Source of the DNA: a virus
Taxonomy: Duplodnaviria > Caudoviricetes
DNA: 53,831 nucleotides
Direction: 5' to 3' (one strand)
Virus record (IMG/VR): IMGVR_UViG_3300028735_000012
Coordinates: 1-53,831 of that record
A model generated the notes under the pieces. It was given only the letters and a program-made list of their open reading frames with translations. It was not told the origin of the DNA and made no database searches. The position numbers and the translations under genes are program-made. This document shows, piece after piece, positions 6,765 through 47,875 of this stretch; the first letter of the stretch is position 1; each line of letters begins with the position of its first letter.

Positions 6765-6807
6765 GATGGTGTCGAGAGAAAAACCTAACCCAAACCCGGA
6801 GAAAGAG

Positions 6808-7101: not shown

Positions 7102-7459
7102 ACGACTACCCTAAACGCAGACCCACGGAGCAGGACATATGCCCTGCTCTGGTAATGCGGCGGCCCGGTGGGTAGCCCGGGCGCAGACAGTCACCGCATT
7201 CCGGACCCGGCCGGTTGCCGGGTAAGGAGGAAGAGCGATGGATTATTCGGCAGAAAACGCATTATTAAGGCCGCTGGCATTGGTCGTATCGGCAAAGATA
7301 TCGTCCTAGTTGGGTCTAAAAATGAGTACACGGGATATGCCTTCCATGTCGGGAAGCATCCGTTAATTCAGTATATTCAATCAATGGAAGTAACGTATGA
7401 CTGGTGACGAGGGGTGCCCGGATGTGTAGCCCGGGCACCCTATGTAAAGGAGAAGAAAA

Positions 7460-10001: not shown

Positions 10002-10033
10002 CGTTACATCAACATGAGAGGCATAATGTAATA

Positions 10034-14166: not shown

Positions 14167-14799
14167 ATGGCGACAAAAGAAAAGGCTACGTCAGCTACGG
14201 CTATTGGCCCCGAAGTGAGCAACGGTGCTGCCGAGACAATTGCGTTGTCTCTGCCGTATCGGGTCGAGGTGGTCATTCGGGGGGAGGCCGACATCCTGTT
14301 CCATCGCTGGAACTGCGAAGCGGTCGAGGCCAAGGCCAAGGCCGCCAAGGGGTCAGCGGCCAAGAAGCAGGACGACGTAGAGTCCTACGTCTATCGCAAC
14401 GACAAGAGCGAACTATGCCTGCCGGGCGAATACTTGCGGCAGGCAGTGATCGGAGCCGCCAAGTTTCGCCAGGATCCACGCAGTCCTCGCAAGTCGGCCC
14501 AAGACCTGGTCAAAGCGGCGGTGGTCAATCTGACGCCGCTAGCTAGTCTAGGCGTCACTGAGTGGGACTACGAACATCGCTGCCGAGTGCAAGTGCAGCG
14601 TAACGGCGTGACGCGGGTGAGGCCAGCGATGCGGGCTGGCTGGCAGGCAACATTCGTGTTTCTGGTCAACTTGCCTGAGTATGTGTCGCGGGAGATGCTA
14701 CTGGGGCTGTTGACGGATGCTGGCCGATTGATCGGCGTAGGCGACTTCCGTCCGACGTATGGGCGGTTCCAAGTCGCATCGTTTAAGGTATGCGACTAA
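14167..14799 (+). CDS. Stand-alone RAMP/Cas7-like protein (putative effector of the adjacent pentamer array)
   Basis: N-terminal VEVVIRGEADILFH strand, LCLPGEYLRQAVIGAA helix motif, C-terminal Gly-rich loop AGRLIGVGDFRPTYGRFQV as in RAMP proteins; AAGGAG RBS. Confidence 0.7.
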   Translation: MATKEKATSATAIGPEVSNGAAETIALSLPYRVEVVIRGEADILFHRWNCEAVEAKAKAAKGSAAKKQDDVESYVYRNDKSELCLPGEYLRQAVIGAAKFRQDPRSPRKSAQDLVKAAVVNLTPLASLGVTEWDYEHRCRVQVQRNGVTRVRPAMRAGWQATFVFLVNLPEYVSREMLLGLLTDAGRLIGVGDFRPTYGRFQVASFKVCD

Positions 14800-14803
14800 T
14801 AGT

Positions 14804-16197
14804 GGCTTGACGGGGCCAAGCGTGGCCAGGCTAGGCGGGGCGGGGCTTGGTGCGGCGCGGCCAGGTTGGACCGGGCTGGGTCCGGCCCGGCTTGGTTCGG
14901 CATGGTATGGCAGGGCAAGGCGTGGCGCGGCTACGCTCTGCGGGCATGGATGCTCGCCCTATCCCCATCGACCAGCAGATGTGCTGGTTTGTGGGAATGG
15001 GGCAAGGTTTTGCTGGGTCCGGCGCGGCGTGGCGGGGCCAGGTGCGGCTCGGTCGGACTTGGCGCGGCGTGGCGGGGTGAGGCCCGGTGGGGCCCGGTGG
15101 GGCGAGGAGGGGCTGGGTCCGGCGTGGCACGGCGTGGCGGGGCGTGGCTCGGCGTGGCGCGGTCGGGCTTGGCGTGGCGTGGCGGAGCCAGGTTTGGCGT
15201 GGCGGGGCAGGGCCGGGCACGGCAGGGCACGGCCGGGTGGGGCGAGGCTCGGCCGGGCTTGGCAGGGTATGGCAGGGCACGGCCCGGCATAACTAAGCTA
15301 AGCCACCTTGACCATGCCCGGTCAAGGTAAGGCGAGATAAGGATAGCTCGCTTTACCTCGACCGGGCGAGGCCGGACCTGGTGGGGCTGGGTCGGGCGAG
15401 GCCCGGCACGGCAGGGCATGGCGTGGCCGGGTCGGGCCTGGTGCGGCGCGGCGCGGCGAGGCAGGGCCGGGCTATTTTTATCGCCCCCGGTCAAGGTAAG
15501 GTGAGCTGTCTTCGTCTCACTTTACCTCGACCGGGCAGGGCGTGGCCAGGCTAGACGGGGCGAGGCCTGGCTGGGCGCGGTCTGGCTGGGCGTGATGGTG
15601 TTCGGCAGAGCTGGATGTGGCTAGGCATGGTATGGCTAGGTTGGGCACGGCATGGCGCGATATGGGCTGGCTCGGCGGAGCCACCTTGACCATACCCGGT
15701 CGAGGTAAGGCGAGATAAGGATAGCTCGCCTTACCTCGACTGGGCGCGGCGGGGCAGGGCGTGGCCAGGCTAGACGGGGCAAGGCCAGGCATGGCGTGGC
15801 GTGGTCCGGTGAGGTCCGACATGGCCGGGTGGGGCTTGGCGTGTCGCGGTGAGGCTTGGCAAGGTGAGGCTTGGCCGGGCTTGGTGTGGCTAGGCGTGGC
15901 CCGGCTACTTTTACCGCCCCAGGTCGAAGTAAGGCGAGACAAAGATAGCTCGCTTTACTTCGGCCTGGTCCGGCGGGGTCGGGCTTGGCGGGCCTGGGCG
16001 GGGCGAGGTCCGGCGAGGTCCGGGCGGAGCATGGCAGGGCCGGGCCGGGCGCGGTTCGGCGCGGCAGGGTGTGGCTTGGCGTGGCGAGGCCAGGCATGGT
16101 TTGGCGAGGTCAGGCGCGGCATGGCGAGGCTAGGCTTGGCCTGGCTTGGCGGGGCTGGGCCAGGTCCGGCAAGGCTGGTTATGGCTTGGCTTGGTTT
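14804..16197 (+). repeat. Array of ~215 GGY-NN pentamers in six blocks (14804-14933, 15001-15290, 15365-15474, 15534-15683, 15743-15907, 15967-16197); putative guide-RNA array
   Basis: Strict 5-nt period, e.g. ggcgc ggcgt ggcgg ggcca ggtgc ggctc; positions 1-3 nearly invariant GGC/GGT, positions 4-5 take all 16 dinucleotides. Confidence 0.95.
15316..15968 (+). ncRNA. Four related ~50-nt stem-loop separators (15316-15367, 15486-15535, 15695-15744, 15919-15968) between pentamer blocks
   Basis: ~20-bp stems CC(C/A)GGTC(A/G)A(G/A)GTAAGG(C/T)GAG...CTC(G/A)C(T/C)TTAC(C/T)TCG..; compensatory changes between copies. Confidence 0.8.
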
Positions 16198-21302: not shown

Positions 21303-21848
21303 ATGAAAAATGTACTTACGACTGGGCAGGTGGCTCGTATGCTAAACACTTCTCCAAGGACAGTGACTAAGTGGGTCGATTCTGGGCAACTGAAAGGCTA
21401 TCGACTGCCTCTCTCCCCAGACCGACGCATTCCTCGTGCATCGCTGCTGGAATTTATCCGGCAGCACAATATCCCTATTCCGCCCGAGCTAGGCTTGCCG
21501 ATCCTGCTAGTGGTGGGCGACCCAGACATGGCTGAGCAATTGCAACGGCAGCTAGTAGGCTGGAAGGTCGAAGCGGCAGACTCCGTATGGACCGCTGCCA
21601 CAATCGCCACTAAAGCCGGCGGACAGCTACGCGGGGCCGTTGTAAGCGGCCAAATAGGCCGCCTTGAAGCAAGAGAGATCGCCCAAGCCCTAGCAGATCA
21701 AATCCGCCTGCGAATCGTGCTATGCGCGGAAGACGACGACGGCTCGATCTGGACGAGCGACGCTGCACTCATGCGCATGCAGTATCCTGTAAGACCTGAC
21801 GCTATCTCGCGGGCCATCCTTTCGGGCATGACGGGGGGATCAAAATGA
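21303..21848 (+). CDS. HTH_17/MerR-like DNA-binding domain plus degenerate receiver-like domain
   Basis: VLTTGQVARMLNTSPRTVTKWVDSGQLKGYRLP...RRIPR, resembling a conserved planctomycete regulator. Confidence 0.8.
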   Translation: MKNVLTTGQVARMLNTSPRTVTKWVDSGQLKGYRLPLSPDRRIPRASLLEFIRQHNIPIPPELGLPILLVVGDPDMAEQLQRQLVGWKVEAADSVWTAATIATKAGGQLRGAVVSGQIGRLEAREIAQALADQIRLRIVLCAEDDDGSIWTSDAALMRMQYPVRPDAISRAILSGMTGGSK

Positions 21849-21893
21849 AACTAAACCGCCAGCAGATGGAAGAACTTTTTACCCAACATCAAG

Positions 21894-22003
21894 GCTTCAA
21901 TGCGGCCACGGTGAGACACCGTGGAGATACAAAGGACCGGTGGGTGGACAGGGTGCAGGGCTTCCAGCTTCAATGCGGCCACGGTGAGACACCGTGGAGA
22001 TAC
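21894..22003 (-). CRISPR. CRISPR mini-array: two identical 37-bp repeats and one 36-bp spacer
   Basis: Repeat GCTTCAATGCGGCCACGGTGAGACACCGTGGAGATAC at 21894-21930 and 21967-22003; internal CCACGGTG/CACCGTGG hairpin; reverse complement ends in ATTGAAGC; AT-rich region 22040-22240 is a possible leader. Confidence 0.9.
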
Positions 22004-22206
22004 GACCGGTGCCTACCGATTGCTGCATGAGCAATGGCTACTACGCGACAAATAATTGTTGCCACCCTTTTTTAAGGAGGCAAGTATCACAAAACATCCT
22101 ATGAAATTTTATTGATGACACTTTAACAATCCAAACAGTTGAAGATTTTTTCGCAGTAGTTTGTGTCGTGTTTTTGCTTGGAGGCGTGAAAGTTTAGCAA
22201 AGATTG

Positions 22207-27444: not shown

Positions 27445-27474
27445 AACGCCCGCCGGAATCTCGGCGGGCGTTTT
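27445..27474 (+). terminator. Intrinsic terminator
   Basis: aacgcccgccg-gaatct-cggcgggcgtt followed by a T-rich tail. Confidence 0.75.
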
Positions 27475-27542: not shown

Positions 27543-28301
27543 ATGCTGGTGTCCTATGACAATAAGGAGACACCTGTGATCCGATCGGCCCCGGAGTTGC
27601 TGGCCCGCGCAATGGGTGTATCCTGTGCCGGGCCGCAACGCTGTTATTTGTGTGGTGCCCCATGCGGCATGACACACACACGCGAAAAGTTTATACGCGA
27701 TACGTTTACCGGCGGCGCGACCGTGGCCTATCCCGCCTCGCGTTTTATCTGCGAAGGCTGCGTGCTTTGTCTGCGTGAATCCTGCGAGGTGCCACAATGC
27801 GACGGCACCAACAGGCATATCAATAAAGGAGCAATGCGAATGTGTTCGTGGCTGCTCACAGCTACGAGTGCCACGGCAGCGACCAAGGCGCACACCTCTT
27901 GGATTCGCGAGATGGCCCTGGCAGAACATGCTGCGCCATGGTGCCTGTCCATTGCCATCAGCGGTCAAAAGCACCTACTGTATCGAGGCGTGGTCAATTA
28001 CGATGCCGGCCCGGTGCGTGCTGTGACGCTAGAGGGCGAGCGAATAGACTATTACGTTCAGGATCTGCGCGACATGCTGGCTACAGCCACGGCTATTGTG
28101 GCAGCATGCGGTAAGCCATCCCTGGAAGATGGGCCGACTCCAGCAACGGTGATTCGGATGTTGGAATACTTGCCCCGATCAGGTGAAAAAATTGTCCAGC
28201 GGTGGCAAGCATATCTACAAAGCCAAGCTTCACAGTGGAGCTTGGCCTGTTTTCTTTCCCCTGCAAAAAAGGAGGCATCGCGTGTCGTATCCCCCGAGTG
28301 A
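27543..28301 (+). CDS. csf1: Type IV CRISPR-associated Csf1 (Cas8-like large subunit)
   Basis: CYLCG...ICEGC Zn finger, SGQKHLLY motif; first gene of the csf operon (start may be GTG 27576 after AAGGAG). Confidence 0.7.
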   Translation: MLVSYDNKETPVIRSAPELLARAMGVSCAGPQRCYLCGAPCGMTHTREKFIRDTFTGGATVAYPASRFICEGCVLCLRESCEVPQCDGTNRHINKGAMRMCSWLLTATSATAATKAHTSWIREMALAEHAAPWCLSIAISGQKHLLYRGVVNYDAGPVRAVTLEGERIDYYVQDLRDMLATATAIVAACGKPSLEDGPTPATVIRMLEYLPRSGEKIVQRWQAYLQSQASQWSLACFLSPAKKEASRVVSPE

Positions 28302-28761
28302 CAATGCAAAGCATAGGCTTAGTTGCGAGGATTTTCGGCGCAAGCTCGCCGACCACATTGACACGCAGCGAGTGGTGGAAAGTGTTGGTGAATGCATGAG
28401 TGTGCGTGAGGCATGCCACCGCTGGCTTGCCCTCCTGGCCAAACACTATGGCACTAGCGAAGACCGAACCCAGATGTGGGCACACATCCACAAAGCAGTT
28501 TCAGTAGCCCTAACCCGCGTGCAAGATGCCGATTTGGAACGATTTGCTACGCTGTGTCTAGAAGGCATCCACGCCGACCCAGTGCGAGTGGCCGCATGCG
28601 AAGCGATTAATCAAATGCTCACCACGGAGTTTAGCTCCGATCACCGCGATGCCGCTTGGCGAAACGCCATCATCTCCCGACTTCGCACCCATCTGACGAC
28701 CGATCTGTCCCATGCCCGGCAACGCTGGGCCAAAATCAAGGAAGGGGGCGTAGAGGCATGA
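28282..28761 (+). CDS. Cas11-like small helical subunit (type IV-B)
   Basis: GGAGG RBS before GTG 28282; all-helical pattern; position between csf1 and csf2. Confidence 0.55.
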   Translation: MSYPPSDNAKHRLSCEDFRRKLADHIDTQRVVESVGECMSVREACHRWLALLAKHYGTSEDRTQMWAHIHKAVSVALTRVQDADLERFATLCLEGIHADPVRVAACEAINQMLTTEFSSDHRDAAWRNAIISRLRTHLTTDLSHARQRWAKIKEGGVEA

Positions 28762-29777
28762 GTCAGACTTATCACGTCCGCATCCTGCATGAGGCGATTA
28801 CACCAATCGCCCACATGCGTGGCAACGAAGGCAACGTCAGCGTCATCAACCGACAAGAGGTCATGACCCCAGCTGGACTGGTCAAGATGCCTGTCTTGTC
28901 AGGCAATGCTTTGCGGCATCGAATGATTCGCGAGCCGCTGGCGGAACATCTTGTCGAAGCATGGGGACTCTCAGGGCGCGTGACCTGGGAATGTCTCAAT
29001 TTCCTTTATCACGGTGGCAATCTCACCGGCTCAACAGGCCGCGAGGACACCCAGCGGATCGCGAAATTGTGCCGATTGATCCCATTTGTGCGGCTGTTGG
29101 GCGGCACACTGCCCGATCAGATTCTCTGTGGCTCAGTCTCGGTGAGCGACGGCTTGCTTGTGTGCCGGGAGTTTGCACCAGCCATTCGTGCCCTGTTCCC
29201 GGCGTCGTCAGGTTGGGAAGTGCCCGACGGGCTACGCTGCGGCGAAGACTATCTCGGTCAATACCAGCACACAAGGGGTGACGCAGCTAAAACGCATCCG
29301 CTCCGGGGGCCGAAGGAGCAGGGGGTGGACAGCGACACCAACTTGATGATTTTCTCAGGCGAAACAGTGGTTCGGGGTGCCTTGTTCGCACAGCGAATTT
29401 CGCTGCGCAGTGTGTCAGATCTGGAACTTGGGGCCATGCTATTTGCTCTGCGACAATGGCAGGCGTCAGGAGGCACTGTGGGCGGCCAGTCGTCGCGGGG
29501 CAAAGGCTACCTGCAATCGGCTTGGCATGTAGAGCAAGCCTATGCAGACCATCCTGCCCCGGTGGATGAGGACGCTCCAGTAGCAGCGTATCTGAACCAT
29601 GTAGCCGCATTCAAGGACGAGGGCGTGGCGTTCTTGCTAAGCATTTACGGTGAACCGGGAGCTAAGCCCGCTAAGCCAGTCAAAGAAAACAAGCGTAAGG
29701 CTAAGTCGGCTAAAGAAGTTACACTCGAAGAGCAAGTCGCTACGGAAGGACCAGACAAGTCTGGAGAGGACACATGA
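28758..29777 (+). CDS. csf2: Type IV Cas7-like Csf2
   Basis: TPIAH, PVLSGNALRHRMIR, LYHGG, RLLGG, GGQSSRGKG Gly-loop. Confidence 0.85.
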   Translation: MSQTYHVRILHEAITPIAHMRGNEGNVSVINRQEVMTPAGLVKMPVLSGNALRHRMIREPLAEHLVEAWGLSGRVTWECLNFLYHGGNLTGSTGREDTQRIAKLCRLIPFVRLLGGTLPDQILCGSVSVSDGLLVCREFAPAIRALFPASSGWEVPDGLRCGEDYLGQYQHTRGDAAKTHPLRGPKEQGVDSDTNLMIFSGETVVRGALFAQRISLRSVSDLELGAMLFALRQWQASGGTVGGQSSRGKGYLQSAWHVEQAYADHPAPVDEDAPVAAYLNHVAAFKDEGVAFLLSIYGEPGAKPAKPVKENKRKAKSAKEVTLEEQVATEGPDKSGEDT

Positions 29778-30562
29778 GCATGGAGCCGTTGCGAGTATGC
29801 GCCCATTTGGCCACACCCATCCTTGCTAATCCGCCTAAGCTGGACGCTCTGCTGGAACTGCGCCTGAGTATGCGTATGAAGGAGGAAGCGTACAACATCG
29901 AACGGCCAGGTCGAGAAATTCCCTGGCCGCGATCAGACGAATTGTTGGCGGATTACCTTGCTCGGACGCAAGGCGTATTGCCAGACAAAAAGGCAGTTGC
30001 TTTGTGGGAGCATGCTCGCGATGGTTCTGCGTTCCCTTTGCCTCTAGGTTGGGAGCGAATCGGTCCCTGGCGTTTGCCACGAGTGAGCAATCCTATCTTG
30101 ATCAGCATTGAAGCCGACACGGTTCGCTATGTCGCCAAGCGAATCGGCACTCAGCGGGTCGAGCAAGTGCATCCGGTGGCAAGGGGTGTACTCAACACTA
30201 CGGGAGGTTGGACCAAAAGCTATCGCCTGCCCATGCGCCAGCGAGCAGCACGAGCAGTGGTGTGGTTTGCGTTCGGCCACGGTAGTGCGATCCGTAAGGA
30301 ATTACAGCGCATCGAAGCCTTGGGTAAAAAAACTTCGATCGGTGGCGGGGTAGTTGCCAAGTGGGAAGTTACACCTATCGACCAAGATTACTCTTGGACA
30401 GCCTACAATCTCGAACAAAATGCCCGCGTGCTAATGCGGACGCTCCCCGTGGAAGCACTGGCCACACTGGGTGATTGCATTGGTTGGAAGCGATCTTTTG
30501 GGGCTTGCGTTGCACCCTATTGGCATCCGGATCGATATACCGAAATCATCGAGCCATGTTGA
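29774..30562 (+). CDS. csf3: Type IV Cas5-like Csf3
   Basis: LRVCAHLATP...LDALL; LGKKTSIGGGVVAKW; MRTLP; APYW. Confidence 0.8.
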   Translation: MSMEPLRVCAHLATPILANPPKLDALLELRLSMRMKEEAYNIERPGREIPWPRSDELLADYLARTQGVLPDKKAVALWEHARDGSAFPLPLGWERIGPWRLPRVSNPILISIEADTVRYVAKRIGTQRVEQVHPVARGVLNTTGGWTKSYRLPMRQRAARAVVWFAFGHGSAIRKELQRIEALGKKTSIGGGVVAKWEVTPIDQDYSWTAYNLEQNARVLMRTLPVEALATLGDCIGWKRSFGACVAPYWHPDRYTEIIEPC

Positions 30563-31434
30563 TCCGAATCGGGTATTCGGCGGTCGAAAAAAAGGCAATT
30601 GTGGACGCCTACATTGCGTCTCGTGATGTTTCCACAATTGTTTTGCTCACGCCAAGACTGTTCGATCCCCAATGGGCGAACGCTGACCGAGTGGAATATG
30701 CCGAAATTATTCAATATCGTCACTACTATCGACTGTTGCGAGAGATTGATCAAAGCACACTAGTTGTGATTAACGAATGCTTGCGCACGCAAAACAGGCA
30801 CGACTTGACGTATAACTGTATTCAAAATTTTTTGTTGCAAACAAAACACGTTATTGTTTTTCAGACTTTGCCACTTATTGATCAGTTTGATGATTTTATG
30901 ATTTTGCTTGACTGGGCAACGCGAAGCAAATACAAGCGACAATCGTTTACCGCCAGCATGCTCAACGAAGTAGATTTGCAATGCAAAGCACTGCCAATTG
31001 CGTTTGAACCTATGGTTGTCCCGACCGATGACAGCCTTAAGAATCGCTACGAACAAGTGAAAGAAAGACTTTTTTCTAATCTAGGGACTAAAGATCCGCA
31101 TACTTTGCCTCGCAATTTATATTTGGTAGGCGGCAAGGCGAAACAAGCTCAAGTCCAGCTGTCTCAATGGTATCTGGGCAGAAACAATCGATTCAAATTA
31201 AAAAATCTCCAAACTTACAGCGCTTTGGCGCTGCCGCACGCGCCGTATGTCATCTTTGAGCTGCCCCATCGTTTTATCGACATGGCAGACGCGATTACCC
31301 TTTCCGGCCAAACACGGTTTACTGTTTTGCTGGCCGATCTCAAAGTGGATCATTGGTATTTCAAACGCTATCAACAATGGGCGGAAAGGATTGCCAATGC
31401 TTTCGCAACGTTATACGGGCGAAACGGTTCTTGA
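30556..31434 (+). CDS. Hypothetical protein (degenerate helicase-like) upstream of IbrA-like gene
   Basis: ORF, AT-rich; LVVINECLR resembles a Walker-B remnant. Confidence 0.55.
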   Translation: MLIRIGYSAVEKKAIVDAYIASRDVSTIVLLTPRLFDPQWANADRVEYAEIIQYRHYYRLLREIDQSTLVVINECLRTQNRHDLTYNCIQNFLLQTKHVIVFQTLPLIDQFDDFMILLDWATRSKYKRQSFTASMLNEVDLQCKALPIAFEPMVVPTDDSLKNRYEQVKERLFSNLGTKDPHTLPRNLYLVGGKAKQAQVQLSQWYLGRNNRFKLKNLQTYSALALPHAPYVIFELPHRFIDMADAITLSGQTRFTVLLADLKVDHWYFKRYQQWAERIANAFATLYGRNGS

Positions 31435-32524
31435 GGCGACCAAAAGACGTATTGCCTTTATCTTTGACAATACCTCTGAAGTGATTTGTTCGATCTCTGG
31501 AGGCAAAGATAGCACTGCACTGTGCCATCTTGCTTTGGAAGAGGCAAAGCGAAGAGGCCGCAAGTTGGGGTTATTTTTTCTCGACGAAGAAGCCATGTAT
31601 CAATCCAGCGTAGACATGGCAGATTATTTGATGTCTCTGTATCCTGAAAATGTAAATCGCTTTTGGTTGCAGATTCCTTTTTGCTTAACTAACGCAACCA
31701 GTCTTTCCGAGGGGCAGTTGATTTGCTGGGAACCAGGAAAGCACAAAGAATGGATGCGAACAAAGCGCACCGACAGTATCCATTATCGCATGTGGGATGA
31801 AGCCAGCCAGACTGTCCGAGACAAGCGTAAAGGATTCGGTTTTTACGATGTGATTGACAATTTTGAGCGATGTTTTGTTGGGGCAGTCTTTCTTGTTGGT
31901 CTACGAGCTTCGGGCGAGTCGCCCAATCGGTGGAGAGCCGTAACCAAAAATCCAGTAACCATCGGTGGGCGGCGTATTTTTTGGGCAACCCAAAAAGGAG
32001 CAAATGTTGCAGCATATCCTATTTTTGATTGGAATTATCATGATGTTTGGCGATACATCTATGATGCAAAAATAAAATATTCTCGCATTTATGATCTTAT
32101 GTTTAAAAAAGGCTATCCTATCAACGAAATGCGAGTTTCTAGTTTAATTCACGAAAAAAGTTTTAAGGCACTATGTGATTTGCCGGAGTTTGAACCAAAG
32201 ACTTATGCACGCTTGCTCAAACGTGTAAAAGGTATTGCTTTAGCTCAAGAACAAGGCAAAAGCAACAAACTTTTTCGTGCAAGAAAGCTGCCGAAAAACT
32301 TCAAGACTTGGCGTTCGTATCGTGATTTTTTGCTGTCTACTCATCCAGACACGTCCAAAGTAGAGATCTTTCGGGCAAGATTTTCGCGTCAACTGGACAA
32401 CGAATTTGTGGCTCGTCAGCAGTGTCGTCAGTTGCTTCTCAATGATTACGAAAACAATCTGCCGATTGAAAACAAGCCCGATCCCAGAGACGAGTGGATT
32501 GCCTATTATCGTGAGGTGCTATGA
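31397..32524 (+). CDS. IbrA-like PAPS-reductase-family protein (DUF3440-type)
   Basis: SISGGKDS PP-loop, FLDEE, VGLRASGES..R, YPIFDW...DVW, MRVS. Confidence 0.85.
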   Translation: MLSQRYTGETVLEATKRRIAFIFDNTSEVICSISGGKDSTALCHLALEEAKRRGRKLGLFFLDEEAMYQSSVDMADYLMSLYPENVNRFWLQIPFCLTNATSLSEGQLICWEPGKHKEWMRTKRTDSIHYRMWDEASQTVRDKRKGFGFYDVIDNFERCFVGAVFLVGLRASGESPNRWRAVTKNPVTIGGRRIFWATQKGANVAAYPIFDWNYHDVWRYIYDAKIKYSRIYDLMFKKGYPINEMRVSSLIHEKSFKALCDLPEFEPKTYARLLKRVKGIALAQEQGKSNKLFRARKLPKNFKTWRSYRDFLLSTHPDTSKVEIFRARFSRQLDNEFVARQQCRQLLLNDYENNLPIENKPDPRDEWIAYYREVL

Positions 32525-33036
32525 TGGCAGAGATACGCTTTCCTTGTCTTTCAGTTCGTATGGTGCCACGCGAGAAAGTGATTGCTAACAACTACAATCC
32601 TAATTCGGTGTCACCAGACAAATTGCACCTGCTTCGCCAATCGATTGTAGATAACGGATTTTGCTTTCCTATTGTTGTGATCTACGACGCCGACCGAGAT
32701 TGCTACGTCATCATTGACGGCTTCCATCGCCGCTTGATGTGTGAGCCGGAATGGCTGGATTTGCCCGAAGTTCCTGTGGTGGTTCTTGAGCATGATCTCA
32801 CGCGCCGAATGGCTGCCACGGTGCAATTCAACAAAGCTCGCGGCCACCATCAGGTAGACCTCGATGCGGAAATTGTGCGTTCCCTGATTGAGCAGGGGCT
32901 GACAGACAAAGAAGTAGCCGAGCGGCTGGGAATGGATCTGGACACAGTGCATCGCTACAAGCAAATCACGGGCGTTGCCGCCTTGTTTGCTCGCGCAGAA
33001 TACTCTATGGCCTGGGAGATGGAGGAGTCGGAATGA
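32521..33036 (+). CDS. IbrB-like ParB/Srx-domain protein with C-terminal HTH
   Basis: ANNYNPN, GFCFPIV, IIDGFHR, ATVQFNKARG. Confidence 0.88.
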   Translation: MMAEIRFPCLSVRMVPREKVIANNYNPNSVSPDKLHLLRQSIVDNGFCFPIVVIYDADRDCYVIIDGFHRRLMCEPEWLDLPEVPVVVLEHDLTRRMAATVQFNKARGHHQVDLDAEIVRSLIEQGLTDKEVAERLGMDLDTVHRYKQITGVAALFARAEYSMAWEMEESE

Positions 33037-33683
33037 AATGGGACTACGGCGGCGCGCACGAGCGGCATGACATGAATGGCATCATTGAGCTGCCTAACAA
33101 CTCGCTAGTCCAGGTATTCGATTGGACAACCGGCCCACTGCCTGACTTTATGCGACAAGCAGACACAGTATTTGTTGACCCGCCGTGGAATGCAGGCAAT
33201 GTGCGGACCTTTTACACTAAGGCAGATCTTGCTTCTGGCCGTGTAGACTTCAGGCATTTTCTTGGGCTTCTCTGGGAAAGAATTTTGGAGATCTCTCCAC
33301 AATATCTATTTTTGGAAATGGGTAAAGAGCATCTTGGCGAAATTCTTGTTGAAGCCAAACGCAGATGGAAATATGTTACATTTTACAATTCAACGTACTA
33401 TCATAAAAAACAAAATATTTGCTATGTGATCCATGCAACGAATGACTACGCCAACCGACGATACAAGTGTTTAGAAGGAATGGACGAGCAGCGTATCATT
33501 GAATGGATTTGTCGTCATCATTCATACCAGTGTATTGACGATATTTGCATGGGACAGGGTCTTGTAGGCTGGAATGCTTATCTGGCCGGCAAGCGATTTG
33601 TCGGTACAGAACTCAATCGCAAGCGACTAGCGGTGTTAGTTGAATGCGTCCGTAACCATTACCGTGAAAACGGGTTGCAATGA
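33033..33683 (+). CDS. Methyltransferase-like protein
   Basis: FVDPPW and DICMGQG...FVGTELN motifs. Confidence 0.7.
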   Translation: MKWDYGGAHERHDMNGIIELPNNSLVQVFDWTTGPLPDFMRQADTVFVDPPWNAGNVRTFYTKADLASGRVDFRHFLGLLWERILEISPQYLFLEMGKEHLGEILVEAKRRWKYVTFYNSTYYHKKQNICYVIHATNDYANRRYKCLEGMDEQRIIEWICRHHSYQCIDDICMGQGLVGWNAYLAGKRFVGTELNRKRLAVLVECVRNHYRENGLQ

Positions 33684-34417
33684 TAGTGCTAAGTATTCGC
33701 CATCGGCCAGAGGATTTGGCTTTGTGGCAAGAGTACAAAGAGGCTGACGTTTTGGCTTGCAAGCATCGACTGCTACGCCTAGAGCAAGAAGCTATTGCGG
33801 CCATTCGAGCGTTTGTCCAAAATGGCAAAGCTTACTGTGGGGTATCTTGGGGTAAAGATAGCGTTGCGGTGGCGTATTTGTGCCATCTTGCCGATGTACA
33901 GGCGCCACTGATCCATTTTCGGCCAACCAATCACAATCCTGATTGCGATGCTGTGCGTGACATTTACTTGCGCCAATGGCCAAGCGAATATCATGAAGTG
34001 TATGTAAACTATTCTGACCTGCATTCCAGAAGATTGCCGCATCAGACGCTTGATCAATTGACTGATGAGCGATGGTATGCGGCAATTCGAGAAGTAAATC
34101 GTCACTATGGCGAACGCCACATTTTGGGTATTCGGGCGGATGAGTCGGCAGGACGACGCATTCGCTGTCTGCGATGGGGAGTTAGTAGCCCTAACGGTTG
34201 TGCGCCCATTGCGTTCTGGTCTTGTGCAGATGTGTTTGCTTATTTGTGTTGGCGAAATTTGCCCATCCACCCCGCTTACGCTATGCTGGGTGGCGGACGC
34301 TGGCCACGGGAGAAACTGAGAGTAGCTGAGATTGGCGACACACACGGCACCGGCGGCGGTCGCCGTCAATGGGAAGAGGAATACTATCCCGACGTGTTGC
34401 GACGAATCGAAGCCTGA
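33680..34417 (+). CDS. CysH-like PAPS-reductase-family protein (type IV-B accessory)
   Basis: VSWGKDS, LGIRADES.GR, PIAFW...DVFAY, LPIHPAY. Confidence 0.85.
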   Translation: MIVLSIRHRPEDLALWQEYKEADVLACKHRLLRLEQEAIAAIRAFVQNGKAYCGVSWGKDSVAVAYLCHLADVQAPLIHFRPTNHNPDCDAVRDIYLRQWPSEYHEVYVNYSDLHSRRLPHQTLDQLTDERWYAAIREVNRHYGERHILGIRADESAGRRIRCLRWGVSSPNGCAPIAFWSCADVFAYLCWRNLPIHPAYAMLGGGRWPREKLRVAEIGDTHGTGGGRRQWEEEYYPDVLRRIEA

Positions 34418-34494: not shown

Positions 34495-34944
34495 ATGGGA
34501 CGCAAAACCAAACTGAACGAAGAGAAAATCAAAGAGCTGTGTGCGGCGCTGCCGACAGCTTTATACGTCGAAACCGCCGCCAACATGGTGGGTATCCCGC
34601 ATCGGACCTTGCGTCACTGGCTAAAACGCGGTCGCGAAGCGCGAGCCAAAGCCGAACGGGATCACACTCCCATTCCCAAGAGCGAGCAAATTTACGCTTC
34701 GCTCGCAGAAGAGATACGCAAGGCGGTAGCCTCTTCGCAGATCCATGCTTTGCGTTGTGTCCACGAAGCGGCCACGGCGGGCCAATGGCAAGCAGCGGCT
34801 TGGCTCTTGGAGCGGCGATTTCCTAACCTCTTTGGCCGCGACCGTGGCGAAGTGCGAGCACTCAAAAAGCGTATCGAGGAGCTGGAAGCACAACTCGCCG
34901 CCGCCAGCCCGTCGCCCGTGGTGCAAGCCGTCAAAGGGCATTAG
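34495..34944 (+). CDS. Terminase small subunit
   Basis: GRKTKL, HTH, WQAAAWLLERRFP; precedes TerL. Confidence 0.8.
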   Translation: MGRKTKLNEEKIKELCAALPTALYVETAANMVGIPHRTLRHWLKRGREARAKAERDHTPIPKSEQIYASLAEEIRKAVASSQIHALRCVHEAATAGQWQAAAWLLERRFPNLFGRDRGEVRALKKRIEELEAQLAAASPSPVVQAVKGH

Positions 34945-34947
34945 GCA

Positions 34948-36396
34948 ATGTCGCGCAAGCGTGCTTGGTACGAACCGCAAGCGCCGGGGTCAACTCTCCG
35001 GCGCTTGCGCCGTCGTGTTGATCGATTGGAAGCCAAGGCACGCCAAGAGCCGATCCGCGAAGTGCCTCCCCTGGATCAATGGCTTGACCAAGTAAGCCCT
35101 GAGTATCGCTGGGACTGGCCACATCTGGTCTATCTCCGCGAACGGCTTCTTGCCCTGCACCGGGGCGACATTCATAGGCTGGCCATCTTTATGCCGCCCA
35201 GACACATGAAAACGTCCCTATCTACTCAGCGGTTTCCGATCTGGTGTCTGGAACAAGATTTACGCTTTCGCATTATTCTTGGAGCGTACAACCAAACGTA
35301 TGCTGAAGAAATGTCGGGCGAGATGCGCAAAATCGCTCGCAGACGGTTTGCGCTCGCCAGAGATAAGCAGGCAGTGAAATCGTGGAAAACGGTCCACGGC
35401 GGTGGTGTGCGTGCTTGCGGAGTCGGCTCTCCGCCAACCGGGCAAGGGGCCAATTTGCTGGTGATTGACGACCCGATCAAAAGCAGCGAAGAGGCCGAAA
35501 GCCCGACTCTGCGCGAGAAAGTCTGGGCGTGGTATTCAAAGGATCTGCTGACCCGCGTTGAGCCGGGCGGTCGTATCCTGCTTATCCTGACTCGCTGGCA
35601 CACGGACGACTTGGCCGGACGTATCCTCAACAGCGAAGATGCCCCTAATTGGACCGTAGTACGGCTGCCCGCAATCGCCGAAGAGAACGACCCCCTGGGC
35701 CGTGCTCCGGGCGAAGCATTGTGTCCTGAACGATACCCCCTCGAGACGCTGGAGTCTCGGCGTCGCGACATGGGCGACTATGCGTTCCAATCCCTCTATC
35801 AACAAAATCCCACACCGCGTTTGGGCAATTTGTTCAAACTCGCTTGGTTCAATCAGTTCACGCGAACTATCCCTGCCGGATCAGCCTTTGTGCGGTATTG
35901 GGATAAAGCGGGCACAGCGGGCGGCGGTTGCTACACGGCAGGTGTACTCATGGCTCGCGACAAAGATAAACATTTCTATATCGTTGACGTGCGCCGTAAG
36001 CAATTGGATGCGGCTGAGCGTGAGGCATGGATTCTCTCGACCGCGCATGAGGACAAACAAAAGTGGGGCCGCGTCGAGATCGGTATTGAGCGTGAAGGCG
36101 GATCCGGCGGTAAGGAATCAGCGAGGGCTACTATTCGCATGCTCGCCGGCTTTCCCTGTTTTGAAGATTGTCCCACAGGCAGCAAAGAGGCACGGGCTGA
36201 ACCGCTAGCCTCTCAGTTTGGCGGCGGTAATGTGTGGTTTTACGCACCAGATGGCGTAGCACCGCCGTGGTATTCCATGTTTCGTGATGAGGCCCTTGCA
36301 TTCCCGCGTGGCAAATATTTAGACATGGTTGATGGTGCTAGTGGCGCTTTTGCACGGCTTAATATGGGCAATCAAAGCCCACGGATCTTGCTGTAG
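34948..36396 (+). CDS. terL: Terminase large subunit
   Basis: MPPRHMKT, LVIDDP, TRWHTDD, YQQNP, YWDKA, DMVD. Confidence 0.95.
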   Translation: MSRKRAWYEPQAPGSTLRRLRRRVDRLEAKARQEPIREVPPLDQWLDQVSPEYRWDWPHLVYLRERLLALHRGDIHRLAIFMPPRHMKTSLSTQRFPIWCLEQDLRFRIILGAYNQTYAEEMSGEMRKIARRRFALARDKQAVKSWKTVHGGGVRACGVGSPPTGQGANLLVIDDPIKSSEEAESPTLREKVWAWYSKDLLTRVEPGGRILLILTRWHTDDLAGRILNSEDAPNWTVVRLPAIAEENDPLGRAPGEALCPERYPLETLESRRRDMGDYAFQSLYQQNPTPRLGNLFKLAWFNQFTRTIPAGSAFVRYWDKAGTAGGGCYTAGVLMARDKDKHFYIVDVRRKQLDAAEREAWILSTAHEDKQKWGRVEIGIEREGGSGGKESARATIRMLAGFPCFEDCPTGSKEARAEPLASQFGGGNVWFYAPDGVAPPWYSMFRDEALAFPRGKYLDMVDGASGAFARLNMGNQSPRILL

Positions 36397-36428
36397 TCGT
36401 GAGTAGTTTTCTCACAAGGGGACTACCC

Positions 36429-37817
36429 ATGAAGCTATCTGCTATCGACCGTTGGCTCCTTTGGGGTGCCGACACGCTCCTGGGGCTGACTACCTTTGCG
36501 GCCAAGGCAATCGCTGGGCGAGGCGAACGTACCCTAGCAAGCCTATGGCCGTCGGGTATCGGCTATCCCGGCGGTTGGTCAAGTAATCGACTAGAGCAAG
36601 CACGACACTATCGACACTGGGTGTATGTCGGCGTGCGAGCAATCGCCAACGAAGTTGCGCGGGCCAAACCCCAGGTGTGTTTCCAACTATCGCCAGACGC
36701 GCAAAAGCAAGGCACAAACAAGCACTATTACACTGCCAACGCTGATTGGTCCCCACGATACAGCAACGCCTACACGCGATACTTCTACCAAAAGGCGCTC
36801 AACAATCAGCAGCAAGGGATGATGCTAGAGCCGGCTGCGCCGGATCACCCACTGGTACGCCTGCTAGCCAATCCCAACGGCCCAGACACAGGCTTTGATT
36901 TTTATTACGAATTGATTATGTTTTTATGCCTCACAGGTAACGGCTTTGTGTGGGTAGTGCCCAACGGGCTAGGATTGCCTGCGGAGCTTTGGGTGATCCC
37001 TTCGCACTGGGTGGTTCCGATTGCGGGTGACGATGGTTTGATTGCCCAGTATGCTGTGCGTCCTTTTGGTACAGGGGGCGGTCGAGGACAATTGCTAATT
37101 CCTGCCGAAGAAATTCTGCACGTTAAGGAGAAAAACCCGCTTAACAAAATTGACGGCATGTCACCTTTGCAAGCGGGTGCAGAATGGATCGACACTACGG
37201 AAAGTGTCACACGCAGTCAATGGGTACATTTTAAGGAAGGTGCATGGCCCGGGGTGCATATTAAAGTGCCCGGCGACCCTACAGACGAAGAGTTGGACCG
37301 AATTTATGCTCGCTTTATTTCCCGTTTTTCAGGCGAGCTAAATCACGGCAAGCCAATTGTTACGTCTCATGGGGCTGAGGTAAAGCGGCTCACGCATACG
37401 CCAATGGAAATGAATTACATCAATTCAGCGGCAGAACTTCGCGACTGCACGCTTGCCCTGCTAGGTGTGCCCAAAGGTGTCGTAGGGCTAGAGCCGGGTG
37501 GCGACAATATCTCCGCGTATGCTCCGCTACGGCAGTTTTGCCGCTTTACTATTTCGCCCATTCTGATGCGGTTGGGGGCAACTTTCACCGAAAAGCTAGG
37601 GACACGGTATCCTGGCAAGCCTATTGTTTGGTATGCCGATCCCACACCCGACGATCCGGCCCAGCTCAACGCCGACATTTCTACCGATTTTGCGTGCGGC
37701 GCCATTGACGCCGACGAAATTCGTGCCCTGCGTGGTCGGCCCCCTCGCAACTATGGCAACAACAACAGCAGAAGCCGTGTTGCCCGCCGCGATAGAGGGT
37801 TTGCTGCTGGAGAGTAG
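36429..37817 (+). CDS. Phage portal protein (HK97 family)
   Basis: WVYVGVRAIA, LLANPN, LTGNGF, EILH, GMSPL, LGVP. Confidence 0.9.
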   Translation: MKLSAIDRWLLWGADTLLGLTTFAAKAIAGRGERTLASLWPSGIGYPGGWSSNRLEQARHYRHWVYVGVRAIANEVARAKPQVCFQLSPDAQKQGTNKHYYTANADWSPRYSNAYTRYFYQKALNNQQQGMMLEPAAPDHPLVRLLANPNGPDTGFDFYYELIMFLCLTGNGFVWVVPNGLGLPAELWVIPSHWVVPIAGDDGLIAQYAVRPFGTGGGRGQLLIPAEEILHVKEKNPLNKIDGMSPLQAGAEWIDTTESVTRSQWVHFKEGAWPGVHIKVPGDPTDEELDRIYARFISRFSGELNHGKPIVTSHGAEVKRLTHTPMEMNYINSAAELRDCTLALLGVPKGVVGLEPGGDNISAYAPLRQFCRFTISPILMRLGATFTEKLGTRYPGKPIVWYADPTPDDPAQLNADISTDFACGAIDADEIRALRGRPPRNYGNNNSRSRVARRDRGFAAGE

Positions 37818-45520: not shown

Positions 45521-45969
45521 GACGCATGAAAAAATCTAGCCTCATGGCAATGCTCGAGGACGCCGGCTATCGCATGCACGAGCAAGGACAATTGACACGT
45601 TACTATGTTATTAACGTACTCATGCACAAGCGAAGCAGGGAAGGACAACTGCTAGTGGAGTATCACGAGCCGCCTGAAAAGGTGATGACACACGCCGAAG
45701 AGTTGGCTAGCCTGTTTCGCAAACGAGGCTATCGCGAGTGGCGGATTCCCCAGTTGGTGCAAGAGCAGCTTGCCCGTGAGGCAGAGGCTGAAGCCAAACG
45801 CAAAGCCGAGAAGTTCAAAAAACGCGAGGCGATGCGCAAGAAGCAACGGGGAGATGCGCAGGTGGAAGCGGAAGCAACGGCTCAGGCGATTGCGGAGCTA
45901 GAAGCACATGGCCGATCTCAGACAATTCGCAAGCAACGCGGCGGAGGCCCTGGAGCGACTGCGCAGTAG
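45448..45969 (+). CDS. Tail assembly chaperone T-like segment (-1 frameshift extension or separate ORF from 45526)
   Basis: -1 frame open from the slippery site to 45969. Confidence 0.5.
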   Translation, partial: PKLVSPRDTKNGSGGKREQQRQRLRRMKKSSLMAMLEDAGYRMHEQGQLTRYYVINVLMHKRSREGQLLVEYHEPPEKVMTHAEELASLFRKRGYREWRIPQLVQEQLAREAEAEAKRKAEKFKKREAMRKKQRGDAQVEAEATAQAIAELEAHGRSQTIRKQRGGGPGATAQ

Positions 45970-47875
45970 TGCAGATCTCGCTTCGCTAGGCTTGACTGCC
46001 GCCTTTGAGCGATTGACCCAACGCCTGCAACCGCTTCTCACACAATTGGGGACAGGAAGCGTCTCTGGTGCCCAGACTGCGGCATCGAGATCTGGGGCAA
46101 AGGCCGATAACTTAGCCGCGTCGCTGCCGTTGGTGCTAATCAATCCGCCCGGTGGCGGTGCGGTCTCACCTCCACCACCGCCACCGGGTTCGAGGACGCC
46201 CAGCATCAATACACCATCACTTGCGGATCTTTCACCTGCCACCGTGACTACACCGACGGTCAAGGGGCCGGCTGGGGGACAGGGTGCAGGGTTTCCTTTG
46301 CCTCTCCCGGTTCGCATTGTGTCGATGGATGCCAAAGCGTCGGCGCAGATGGCCGTGCTGGCGTTGCCCGGCCAGGTGGCGACCGTGGCAGCCCAGCAGC
46401 AAAGGCAGGCGGGCGGCGGGGGTGGCATTACGCAATTCGCGCAGAATGCCGGTGCGCAAGGTGCAAGCCTGTTTGCACAACTTAGAGACGCTATGACCGG
46501 CTTTGCGTCATCTGCTGATCCATTTATCAGCTGGCCAACATACAAGGCAAGTGTGGAAGGGCTAAGCATCAGCATTGGGCAGATGTTTACACCTGCCCTG
46601 AATGAAGCTTCTCGATACATCCAGCAAGTAACGGCATATATTGATGGTCTGGATGCGACAACCAAAAGCTACGCGGCCCGCGTGGTGATTACGGGTGTGA
46701 GTGTGCTGGCCGGAGTGGCGGCTTTGTACAAACTTGGTCAAGCTTTTTACGCCGTTGCCGTGGCGGCACGAGCGGCTACGGTGGCCATGATTTCCAACCC
46801 TGTGACGGCGATTATTGCGGCCACGGCGGCGGTGGCGGGCTTGGCGGCGGCTTGGTATCTGGCGTCCAACAACGCCAATAGTGCCGCTACGGCGGCGGGC
46901 AAAGTGGCGGGGGTAATTGCAGGATTGCGTGATGCCGGCAGTGCTGAACCGCAAGTCACAGATTTGCGAAAGGTTTCTCCCGAAACGCGAAAGCTCATCG
47001 AGTCAGCTTCGCAGAAAAAATCCCCGACTATTTTGGGGCAAGCCCGAGAAGCACTAGATAAAGAAGCAGAAGAAGCAAAGCAAGCGTTTGAAAAAGCAGA
47101 CGCCGTTTACAAGGCGACACAATCGCAACGTGACACCGCCTATGCTTTTGACGCTGCGATTAGCAAGGCATTTGCGGAAAATGTACGAGAAGCGTCTCGC
47201 ACGATTAGCTTGTTTAACGCATATCCAAGCCTCAGAGAGGGGGAAATTCCTAAAGGTGTTCAGCTTACTCCATTTCAACAAGCTGTTTTGCGTGAACGCC
47301 CTAAGACAATGGAGCAGGTGCGACGGGTTGTAGGCGCAGAAGCCGACGCCAGAATGTCAAGCACCCTAGTGCAGGAAGCGGCTAAATTGCCCGACGCGAT
47401 CAGAGATCGTGTCGTGCAGGAGTTTCGCAGTGACATCCCATCAACGTATTTTACTCAAGGCTATACGTCTGCACCTCTGGGAGTGTTAAAACAAAAACGT
47501 CCTGAACTGTTAGATGCTCGCAATCTAAGTTTTCCGATTAATCCTGCCGGCAGTGTGATGGTTGACTACGGCATTTCTCGCACACTGACACAAGCACGTG
47601 AGCGATTGGACGCCATTTCACGATTGCAAAATGCCGTAGGGGGTGGTGGCACCACAGGTGGCCCGATGCAAGCGTTAGGCAGTCTACCTGCACCGGTGAT
47701 TTCCAGCAGTGAAGCGTTAGCCGATCGGCTTCAAATTGCTGCTCTCAAAGGTGACGATTTGCAAGCGGCTAACATGGCTAAGCAGTTACAAGCTCTGGAG
47801 CAATCCAATGTGCTTTTGAAAGAAGTAAAAGACGCGATTCGTGATCTTCGCATCTTACCACAGTGGATGTATTAG
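45908..47875 (+). CDS. Tail tape measure protein
   Basis: Ala-rich helical protein with hydrophobic NPVTAIIAATAAVAGLAAAW segment; follows the chaperones. Confidence 0.75.
   Translation: MADLRQFASNAAEALERLRSSADLASLGLTAAFERLTQRLQPLLTQLGTGSVSGAQTAASRSGAKADNLAASLPLVLINPPGGGAVSPPPPPPGSRTPSINTPSLADLSPATVTTPTVKGPAGGQGAGFPLPLPVRIVSMDAKASAQMAVLALPGQVATVAAQQQRQAGGGGGITQFAQNAGAQGASLFAQLRDAMTGFASSADPFISWPTYKASVEGLSISIGQMFTPALNEASRYIQQVTAYIDGLDATTKSYAARVVITGVSVLAGVAALYKLGQAFYAVAVAARAATVAMISNPVTAIIAATAAVAGLAAAWYLASNNANSAATAAGKVAGVIAGLRDAGSAEPQVTDLRKVSPETRKLIESASQKKSPTILGQAREALDKEAEEAKQAFEKADAVYKATQSQRDTAYAFDAAISKAFAENVREASRTISLFNAYPSLREGEIPKGVQLTPFQQAVLRERPKTMEQVRRVVGAEADARMSSTLVQEAAKLPDAIRDRVVQEFRSDIPSTYFTQGYTSAPLGVLKQKRPELLDARNLSFPINPAGSVMVDYGISRTLTQARERLDAISRLQNAVGGGGTTGGPMQALGSLPAPVISSSEALADRLQIAALKGDDLQAANMAKQLQALEQSNVLLKEVKDAIRDLRILPQWMY

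Follow-up and report, generated by a model that had tools for sequence, protein, structure and literature searches.

The Locus and Its Genes

The DNA analysed here, termed the window, is the entire IMG/VR record IMGVR_UViG_3300028735_000012, a single contig of 53,831 bp from a tailed phage (Duplodnaviria; Caudoviricetes). It encloses an operon of nine plus-strand genes at 27543–34417, in which the genes of a CRISPR-Cas system belonging to type IV-B (csf1, cas11, csf2 and csf3) are followed by four further genes (g5–g8) and by a gene for a CysH-like protein (Table 1). A first-pass annotation, made from the letters of the DNA, had described this stretch as a type IV-B-like operon of the order csf1-cas11-csf2-csf3...cysH, and the open reading frames (ORFs) are found at the coordinates it had given. 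The order itself is borne out by profile searches, by the best solved match of Csf2 (7JHY), and by its preservation in 23 viral loci.

Table 1. Features of the operon, its flanks, and the mini-CRISPR array with its related site in the window.
Feature	Position	Strand	Description
csf1	27543..28301	+	type IV large subunit (Cas8-like), 252 aa; PADLOC typeIV_Cas8 E 1.2e-44
cas11	28282..28761	+	type IV small subunit, 159 aa; PADLOC typeIV_Cas11 E 5.2e-21
csf2	28758..29777	+	type IV Cas7 backbone, 339 aa; PADLOC typeIV_Cas7 E 1.2e-66; phrog_22746 E 1.1e-52
csf3	29774..30562	+	type IV Cas5, 262 aa; PADLOC typeIV_Cas5 E 5.4e-32; phrog_34599 E 1.2e-26
g5	30556..31434	+	292 aa; compact SWI2/SNF2-ATPase-like fold; no family match (Pfam, NCBIfam, PADLOC, PHROG)
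g6	31397..32524	+	375 aa; Pfam PAPS_reduct E 7.4e-12, DUF3440 E 1.6e-10; phrog_2302 E 1.1e-82
g7	32521..33036	+	171 aa; ParB/Srx-like N-terminal domain and helix-turn-helix (HTH); phrog_2159 E 1.1e-50
g8	33033..33683	+	216 aa; small phage N6/N4-type DNA methyltransferase-like; DPPW motif
cysH-like (CasCysH)	33680..34417	+	245 aa; Pfam PAPS_reduct E 7.4e-8, 33 bits vs. cut-off 22.5
terminator-like hairpin	27445..27472	+	12 pairs, 9 of them G-C, then T-run; closes the upstream gene
HTH-like ORF	34495..34944	+	149 aa; small terminase, by position only
large terminase	34948..36396	+	Terminase_6N/6C (Pfam); TIGR01630 44.7 bits vs. cut-off 41.65
portal gene	36399..37817	+	
mini-CRISPR array	21894..22003	- (strand of host-like crRNA)	two perfect 37-nt repeats, one 36-nt spacer
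self-site resembling the mini-array spacer	46262..46297	+	29/36 bases; in frame in a 655-aa ORF (45908–47875) of the tail region

The overlapping stops claimed for the whole operon are present at each of its eight junctions, where neighbouring genes overlap by 20, 4, 4, 7, 38, 4, 4 and 4 nt, with ATGA overlaps at five of them. On account of these overlaps, the nine genes very probably form one translationally coupled, co-expressed operon. It starts about 70 nt past the terminator-like hairpin listed in Table 1; the region holds 10 terminator-like sites versus 9.4 in shuffled sequence, so that the total is not raised and the terminator call relies on the strength of this single hairpin. Downstream, 77 nt separate gene 9 from the next ORF, the putative small terminase, after which the large terminase follows, in line with the phage context and the position before the terminase that had been noted.

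The search with hidden Markov models (HMMs), which the first-pass annotation had proposed as a check, yielded PADLOC type IV matches for all four Csf/Cas11 proteins, each covering nearly the whole model (for Csf1, residues 16–246; for Cas11, model positions 5–140 of 141). Csf1 carries a four-cysteine CxxC...CxxC zinc finger, with C34, C37, C70 and C73 invariant in 20 homologues. For cas11, the likeliest start is a GTG at 28282, six bases past an AAGGAGG Shine-Dalgarno sequence, from which the 20-nt overlap with csf1 results; a sequence search of the PDB with Cas11 gave no solved relative. The best PDB chain for Csf2 is the Csf2 of the IV-B complex 7JHY (E 0.0039), with the IV-A Csf2 of 8rc2 at E 0.82. 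The C-terminal tail of Csf2 (29640–29777, residues about 295–339) is rich in Lys and Glu and is absent in homologues, which are mostly 276–334 aa long. A Pfam search gave no match for genes 1–5.

Among the nine operon proteins, PADLOC detected no DinG/RecD helicase, Cas6/Csf5, Cas10-like HD subunit or adaptation genes, and among the other 53 phage ORFs no Cas6, Cas1, Cas2, Cas4, Cas3 or Cas10; a DinG model gave a single weak match (E 3.2e-5), to the replicative helicase. The absence of a helicase has to be read together with the SNF2-like fold of g5, but the module to which g5 belongs also occurs without IV-B genes. Neither the operon nor its immediate flanks contain a repeat pair, the sole array in the genome being a mini-CRISPR array 5.5 kb upstream. 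Both the PADLOC search and the repeat search of the genome agree with the earlier statement that IV-B as a subtype is typically devoid of Cas6, nuclease and arrays. Subtype IV-B is defined by csf1 and cas11 without a DinG, RecD, Cas6 or Cas10-like gene (PMC7038947, PMC8175902). IV-A systems, by comparison, do not have the Cas11 small subunit. There is scarcely any doubt that the operon contains a genuine, intact type IV-B module of a tailed phage, comprising Csf1, Cas11, Csf2, Csf3 and the CysH-like protein that is a signature of IV-B.

The CysH-like protein has as invariants in 18 homologues the PP-loop S-W-G-K-D-S, a GxRxxES motif, an LPxHPxYAMLGGGR block and a WExEYY block. Conserved cysteines are lacking among these homologues, which agrees with the description of the IV-B CysH-like protein as being without the catalytic cysteine (PMC8175902). 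In profile comparison, the gene beside a Rhodococcus plasmid IV-B locus is matched by hhalign at 99.3% (E 8.8e-21), and the same-operon paralogue g6 is farther away (E 4.2e-8). A sequence search of the PDB returned nothing for this protein; the closest folds to its AlphaFold2 model (predicted local distance difference test score, pLDDT, 92.4) are the APS/PAPS reductases, followed by FAD synthase, the tRNA thiolases NcsA and TtuA, LarE, and CysD (E about 1e-6 to 1e-4, template modelling (TM) score about 0.5–0.6). As modelled, the fold is that of a PP-loop adenine-nucleotide alpha-hydrolase, and it contains no pointer to the substrate. Since the PP-loop and GxRxxES are kept and a conserved cysteine is lacking, we infer, for chemistry and target alike, that the protein would spend ATP on adenylyl transfer or on an ATP alpha-hydrolase step and not on sulfate reduction.

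Distribution of the Cassette

A search of 5.8 billion proteins for relatives of the cassette gave 150 matches at E <= 0.001, the nearest of which is 50% identical; nearly all of them are unnamed, and many lie on contigs of 43–55 kb. By HMMER over 1.84 billion representatives of clusters formed at 50% identity, 700, 239 and 80 clusters were recovered at E <= 1e-3, 1e-10 and 1e-30, respectively. A single-sequence scan of IMG/VR with Csf2 found no relatives; the scan with an alignment of 30 relatives located 23 loci. When these were searched by tblastn (E 1e-4) with the proteins of this phage as query, by which the small, fast-evolving Cas11 is under-counted, csf1 was found in 22, cas11 in 18, csf3 in 23 and a cysH-like gene in 18 of the 23. 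Mostly, the cysH-like gene directly follows csf3, and in one locus it separates csf2 from csf3; of the five loci in which it is absent, two end less than 0.85 kb past csf3.

The surroundings of the cassette vary. A Pfam scan downstream of it covered 60 of 100 listed ORFs in 19 loci, with short or minus-strand ORFs and all of L003, L009 and L019 excluded, and placed a large terminase within the next few genes in five of the 19 (L006, L010, L012, L018 and L021), representing four terminase families. In the other loci, a helicase together with a primase-polymerase, DNA polymerase A, an integrase, a sigma factor or radical-SAM genes are found downstream. The cassette is also present on six contigs of metagenome-assembled genomes (MAGs), four of them labelled as Planctomycetota lineages, with the same gene order in five of the six, and plasmid records gave twelve matches of 24–28% identity, mostly from Gordonia, Rhodococcus and archaea. 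The motifs stay invariant in homologues that are 31–61% identical to the window proteins, and sequence comparison indicates that the cassette is conserved under selection across diverged viral loci. The unit csf1-cas11-csf2-csf3-cysH is a widespread, mobile tailed-phage cassette and is not confined to plasmids.

Among 50,697 deposited phage records there was a single match, Skermania phage SPI1 (KR011061). This cultured tailed phage of 55.7 kb carries the same five-gene cassette as Orf40–Orf44 (L024, 3846–7479), in which Orf40–43 match PADLOC typeIV_Cas8 (E 1.9e-28), Cas11 (E 5.9e-15), Cas7 (E 1.2e-66) and Cas5 (E 2.1e-36), and Orf44 resembles the CysH-like protein of the window (BLASTP E 1e-11). 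In contrast to the window, the SPI1 cassette lies between tail and lysis genes instead of before the terminase, is without the inserted module, has a Csf2 just 25.7% identical to that of the window, and has all five genes annotated as “hypothetical protein”. No paper on Skermania SPI1 was found in the literature; the phage would be a tractable cultured model for the IV-B cassette.

The Mini-Array and the Arrays of the Presumed Host

The two repeats of the mini-array, at 21894–21930 and 21967–22003, each fold into a stable 8-bp hairpin. An interpretation of the repeats as part of a 61-aa ORF (21845–22030) was rejected, the repeat being identical to hundreds of CRISPR-array copies. A search with a 20-nt half of the repeat led to 20 metagenome stretches, nine of which are CRISPR arrays of 14–108 repeats (L026, L031, L033, L034, L035, L037, L039, L041 and L043); ten were chance single matches and not arrays, and in one (L040) the repeat is cut off at the contig end. 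On the nine array contigs, 397 of the 402 repeat copies agree with that of the phage in all 37 nt. In a set of genomes from 185,579 species, a 25-nt part of the repeat (stem and end) had no match.

Of 384 unique spacers in these arrays, 30 match the phage at no more than five mismatches, at 32 sites (8 perfect), as compared with 0 in three shuffled control sets. The matched sites include cas11 (36/37 at 28703–28739), the CysH-like gene (34/34 at 33863–33896) and the junction of g7 and g8 (37/37 at 33003–33039). Because so many spacers match the phage, these genes included, the nine arrays belong, from the sequence evidence, to a host of the phage or of its very close kin. Perfect matches are concentrated at one end of the arrays (positions 65–67 of 67 in L033, 52–55 of 55 in L034, and 55 and 58 of 62 in L041), and both arrays having a flank finish on the other side with a degenerate repeat, which together place the leader on the side of the newest spacers and give a CRISPR RNA (crRNA) whose repeat ends in ATTGAAGC; we take this end to resemble the usual 8-nt crRNA tag. 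With perfect spacers at their leader-side end, the nine arrays constitute a record of a recent arms race. Strong motifs were not seen in the flanks of the 30 protospacers when a protospacer-adjacent motif was looked for, the sole bias being an A at +2 (19/30; 0.48 bit), and the protospacer strands are mixed (14 plus and 18 minus over the 32 sites). No host cas genes were found in the non-array flanks of L031 and L041, both of which arrays leave their contigs on the leader side.

Transferred to the phage, a host-like crRNA would be read from the minus strand, while nearly all phage genes lie on the other one. A promoter-like site for such a minus-strand crRNA of the mini-array was not detected, and a terminator-like site follows the array on the plus strand. 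One host spacer (L033 sp15, 38/38) targets 22071–22108, an A+T-rich intergenic stretch just right of the mini-array, the place expected for the leader or promoter of a crRNA on the minus strand.

The spacer of the mini-array resembles a site of the phage itself (Table 1). Five of the seven mismatches fall on codon position 3, 10 of the 12 encoded residues are identical, and such a resemblance is expected by chance 4.5e-7 times per genome; the surrounding ORF has no family match. Neither the exact spacer nor a looser pattern that covers both spacer and self-homologue had a match in IMG/VR, and the spacer is absent from the 384 host spacers. Viral mini-arrays have been described that are directed at viruses related to the carrier and spare the carrier itself, and the in-frame self-resemblance corresponds to the pattern reported for them (PMC11656645). 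The mini-array is best read as a classical virus-borne mini-array, dependent on host Cas proteins and aimed at the tail-region gene of a related phage. The earlier claim of a mini-array with an identifiable target holds insofar as the array is real and the kind of target is recognisable; the exact target, however, is absent from IMG/VR.

Proposed Mechanism and the RNA Partner

As a whole, the locus is, with moderate confidence, best explained as an intact IV-B system with an inserted module, playing a role in conflict and depending on an externally supplied RNA partner. Based on homology with the solved Mycobacterium IV-B complex (7JHY), a Cas7/Cas11 filament on RNA (PMC7937560), Csf2 and Cas11 would form a filament on an RNA of roughly 55–60 nt with Csf1 and Csf3 at its ends; by this analogy, an RNA-bound Csf2/Cas11 filament that operates without nuclease, Cas6 or spacer acquisition is highly likely. 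The system would serve the phage in conflict with host CRISPR or with rival phages, a role which we consider fairly likely and for which the setting is that of a phage under intense CRISPR targeting. The conflict setting is defined by the presumed host arrays, which share the repeat of the mini-array and contribute the matching spacers, and in this one case it is visible from the sequence alone.

In all 29 related loci, the cassette has no array of its own within the retrieved flanks, which is why the RNA partner must come from outside the cassette. In the present phage, it would be host-repeat RNA, taken either from host crRNAs by capture or hijacking or from the phage mini-array. Both sources together make a tentative proposal, whose probability we place below even, and a contribution of the mini-array is doubtful. 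Extended to its full form, the proposal would have the Csf complex load crRNAs with the host repeat (made by host Cas6 from the mini-array, the host arrays or both) and act, without cutting, together with the CysH-like enzyme to exclude related phages or to disarm the crRNAs that target this phage; in this form it is unlikely. If true, it would provide the first defined IV-B guide and a viral hijacker of host CRISPR RNA.

Several points weigh against the explanation given above. The scores for the NCBIfam equivalogs TIGR03114, TIGR03115 and TIGR03116 are 15.9, 37 and 25.6 bits versus cut-offs of 140, 130 and 140 (Csf1 against TIGR03114: E 0.0079), though these models are narrow and the Csf1, Csf2 and Csf3 equivalogs, while sub-threshold, are the top matches in the correct order. 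No array was found near the cassette in the 23 IMG/VR and six MAG loci, with flanks of up to 10 kb, and no mini-array in SPI1, of whose 55,748 bp 50,000 were covered. In the only biochemical study, a IV-B complex showed no enrichment of co-expressed crRNAs, the bound RNA being heterogeneous (PMC7937560), and a survey reported IV-B to be negatively correlated with other CRISPR-Cas systems in hosts (PMC7038947). As regards the latter, the phage may be atypical for IV-B, since its presumed host has very large arrays.

A more specific explanation regards the mini-array as a dedicated IV-B guide: host Cas6 would cut its transcript and Csf would load the crRNA to block a competing phage, by binding of the tail-region gene or its mRNA without cutting, with the CysH-like protein adding a modification step. 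It draws on the presence of operon and mini-array 5.5 kb apart in a small genome without Cas6 or another effector, on the homology of the spacer to a phage tail-region gene with mismatches of synonymous type, and on the host-like orientation, in which the crRNA would be antisense to the mRNA of that gene; moreover, the same hypothesis has been put forward for a virus of archaea that combines IV-B, CysH and a mini-array (PMC10848311). However, no CRISPR-like repeat pair accompanies the cassette in the flanks of the 29 related loci or in the searched part of SPI1, and for this reason the general function of the cassette needs no phage array. Furthermore, the repeat belongs to the host, so that host effectors are the default users, the crRNA strand is the minus strand without a promoter-like site and with the plus-strand terminator-like site after the array, the exact target is not found in IMG/VR, and the Mycobacterium complex did not enrich crRNAs (PMC7937560). 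We regard a dedicated guide as improbable. What the first-pass annotation had called a rare handle on the loaded RNA is weaker than it had seemed: the mini-array is genuine, but it lies 5.5 kb from the operon, carries a host repeat in minus-strand orientation, and has no counterpart within the retrieved flanks of the 29 loci.

The Inserted Module g5–g8

The AlphaFold2 model of g5 (pLDDT 92.5) resembles the cores of ISWI, SNF2h and INO80 in a Foldseek search against the PDB (E about 1e-7, TMq about 0.6), with ISWI 6iro as the best match (E 7.8e-8) and a concordant Atlas lead; a canonical Walker A motif is not seen in the alignment. The protein represents an unnamed family with an SNF2-ATPase-like fold, and a small methyltransferase is usually adjacent to it. 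DndC models match g6 weakly (E 2e-4), and the Pfam ParB_N match of g7 (E 3.4e-5, 24.3 bits) is just under the cut-off of 26.3. For g8, no HMM match was obtained in Pfam, NCBIfam, PADLOC or PHROG; by Atlas structure comparison it has TM scores of 0.89–0.91 to “methyltransferase” clusters and of 0.70–0.74 to PF01555 clusters. The pair IbrA/IbrB of E. coli is presumably a comparable combination of a PAPS-reductase and a ParB-like protein.

In IMG/VR, a single-sequence scan with g5 revealed no relatives, and an alignment-based scan revealed 26 loci (L046–L071). The gene next to g5 is g6 in all 26, g7 is present in 25 (the remaining locus is cut off), and a g8-like gene adjoins in 19. The set is present twice in L060, L066, L070 and L071. 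No csf match lies alongside in 21 of the 26 loci; just two, L064 and L065 (identical in contig to L006 and L004), have the full csf1–csf3 set next to the module. Given these 21 loci without csf neighbours, comparison across loci indicates that g5–g8 are a separable phage module, inserted between csf3 and cysH and not part of the IV-B system. The stretch had been presented as one IV-B-like operon; its genes are coupled, but the intervening g5–g8 form a separate module. By analogy with the Dnd and Dpd systems, in which proteins of the PAPS-reductase family and ParB-like proteins cooperate in DNA modification (PMC12839542), the role of the module is probably DNA modification. As in DndC/DndB, a PAPS-reductase/DUF3440 protein (g6) lies beside a ParB-like protein (g7) and a methyltransferase; in contrast, the phage has no cysteine desulfurase or other Dnd genes, and g5 is without the canonical Walker A.

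A different explanation unites all nine genes in one nucleic-acid modification machine, with the RNA-bound Csf complex as scaffold or targeting device and with the PP-loop enzymes, the ParB-like, the SNF2-fold and the methyltransferase proteins marking phage DNA (or RNA) against restriction or CRISPR. Both here and in two of the 23 IMG/VR loci (L004 and L006), the module does lie inside the cassette in translational coupling with it, weak csf2- or csf3-like matches occur near the module in L048, L051 and L056, the partnership of PAPS-reductase and ParB-like proteins is established for Dnd and Dpd (PMC12839542), and CRISPR pressure on the phage is heavy. Against it stand the module loci without csf genes and the restriction of the full set to two contigs, and, conversely, the 16 of 18 cysH-bearing IMG/VR cassettes from which the module is absent, hence, two separable units. 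Furthermore, in comparison with L004 and L006 the identity is about 60% for g6, g7 and cysH and only 32–43% for the Csf proteins, a gap that fits separate histories of these sequences. A single machine is, in our estimation, quite improbable. Least probable by far is a decaying or functionless passenger, for which the lack of a known IV-B phenotype, the function being called uncharacterised in a 2024 review (PMC11656645), and the missed NCBIfam cut-offs could be cited, but which is at odds with nine intact, tightly coupled ORFs, with invariant motifs kept in homologues 31–61% identical, with the recurrence of the cassette beside four large-terminase families and, we infer, with the cost of space in a 54-kb capsid.

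Comparison with Known Systems

With the IV-B system of the Mycobacterium sp. JS623 plasmid (PDB 7JHY) and of other actinobacterial megaplasmids, the phage cassette shares the order csf1, cas11, csf2, csf3, a cysH-like neighbour, and the lack of Cas6, array, helicase and nuclease; the Rhodococcus plasmid locus has the same neighbourhood, and its cysH-like gene matches the phage profile. In contrast to the plasmid systems, from which phage Csf2 differs with an identity of 24–28%, the phage cassette is virus-borne, lies next to packaging genes and contains the four-gene insertion, and the presumed phage host has large CRISPR arrays. In the Rhodococcus locus, moreover, cysH is divergent, whereas the phage gene is on the same strand and in the same operon.

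A viral precedent is a “Fuxiviridae” virus of Bathyarchaeia, which has a IV-B effector, an adjacent CysH-like gene and a mini-array of two repeats and one spacer, and whose cas genes are likewise targeted by host spacers (PMC10848311). That virus, however, is archaeal and carries the mini-array inside the cas locus, whereas the present one is of bacterial type with the mini-array 5.5 kb away; no protospacer is reported there, whereas a 29/36 homologue lies in the phage's own tail-region gene here, and in this phage the repeat is identical to that of recovered environmental arrays. From virus-borne mini-arrays and solitary-repeat RNA anti-CRISPRs (PMC11656645, PMC10651486), the phage element takes the small number of spacers (one or two), a repeat identical to that of the host, a spacer that would target a virus related to its carrier, and a carrier without cas genes of the matching type. 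It differs in that this phage has, in addition, genes for an effector of another type (IV-B) without an array and in that the exact target relative was not found in IMG/VR.

In print are IV-B systems in prophages and some phages as well as the one archaeal virus with IV-B and a mini-array (PMC7038947, PMC11656645, PMC10848311). According to a 2024 review, the function of type IV-B “remains to be characterized” (PMC11656645), and literature searches found no experimental function for it. The breadth of the viral clade, the unannotated SPI1 cassette, the module inside the cassette, and the host arrays with the identical repeat appear to be new; no paper describing these four points was found, and supplementary tables of surveys may list some of the loci. 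With a small array taken over from its presumed host, the phage is a useful natural case of a known, still unexplained system, for which the findings suggest which RNA, in which orientation and with which repeat-derived tag, might be offered to the complex, while they do not reveal its function.

Further Features of the Genome

The gene set of the phage is of tailed-phage type, with nearly all genes on the plus strand. The operon is preceded by genes for a Sak4/primase-like protein, SSB, RusA, a helicase, a primase-polymerase, a sigma-like factor, a methyltransferase, dCTP deaminase and thymidylate synthase, and followed by terminase, portal, protease, major head protein, adaptor and tail-region genes; a tRNA search of the window found none. 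Among sequencing runs there were three DNA sets with microbial-mat and hot-spring labels, one of which may be the source of the record, and no RNA set.

At 7116–7180 (+), between the ORFs 6658–7101 and 7168–7407, a type-P5 twister ribozyme is predicted by Rfam with 39.1 bits versus a gathering score of 37.6, the full model being matched. A stretch of about 1.4 kb at 14804–16176, between an ORF of unknown function (14167–14799; phrog_4652) and the RusA-like gene, consists of G-rich pentamer repeats of the GGCNN type with periods of 5, 10, 15, 20 and 25 (G+C 0.66, GC skew +0.21). Several frames are open on both strands, for which reason it is probably non-coding; presumably, this is the “pentamer array” that the first-pass annotation had mentioned.

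Thirteen copies of a 114-nt (38-aa) repeat extend across three adjoining ORFs at 8517–10764, which have weak PHROG matches to RCC1-like and tail proteins and may be one repeat-protein gene split by frameshifts, or else reflect the assembly. Long tandem repeats occur at either end of the record, at 328–1245 (195 nt) and at 53131–53822 (141–144 nt); among the host spacers, L034 sp11 matches the right-end repeat in three to four of its copies.

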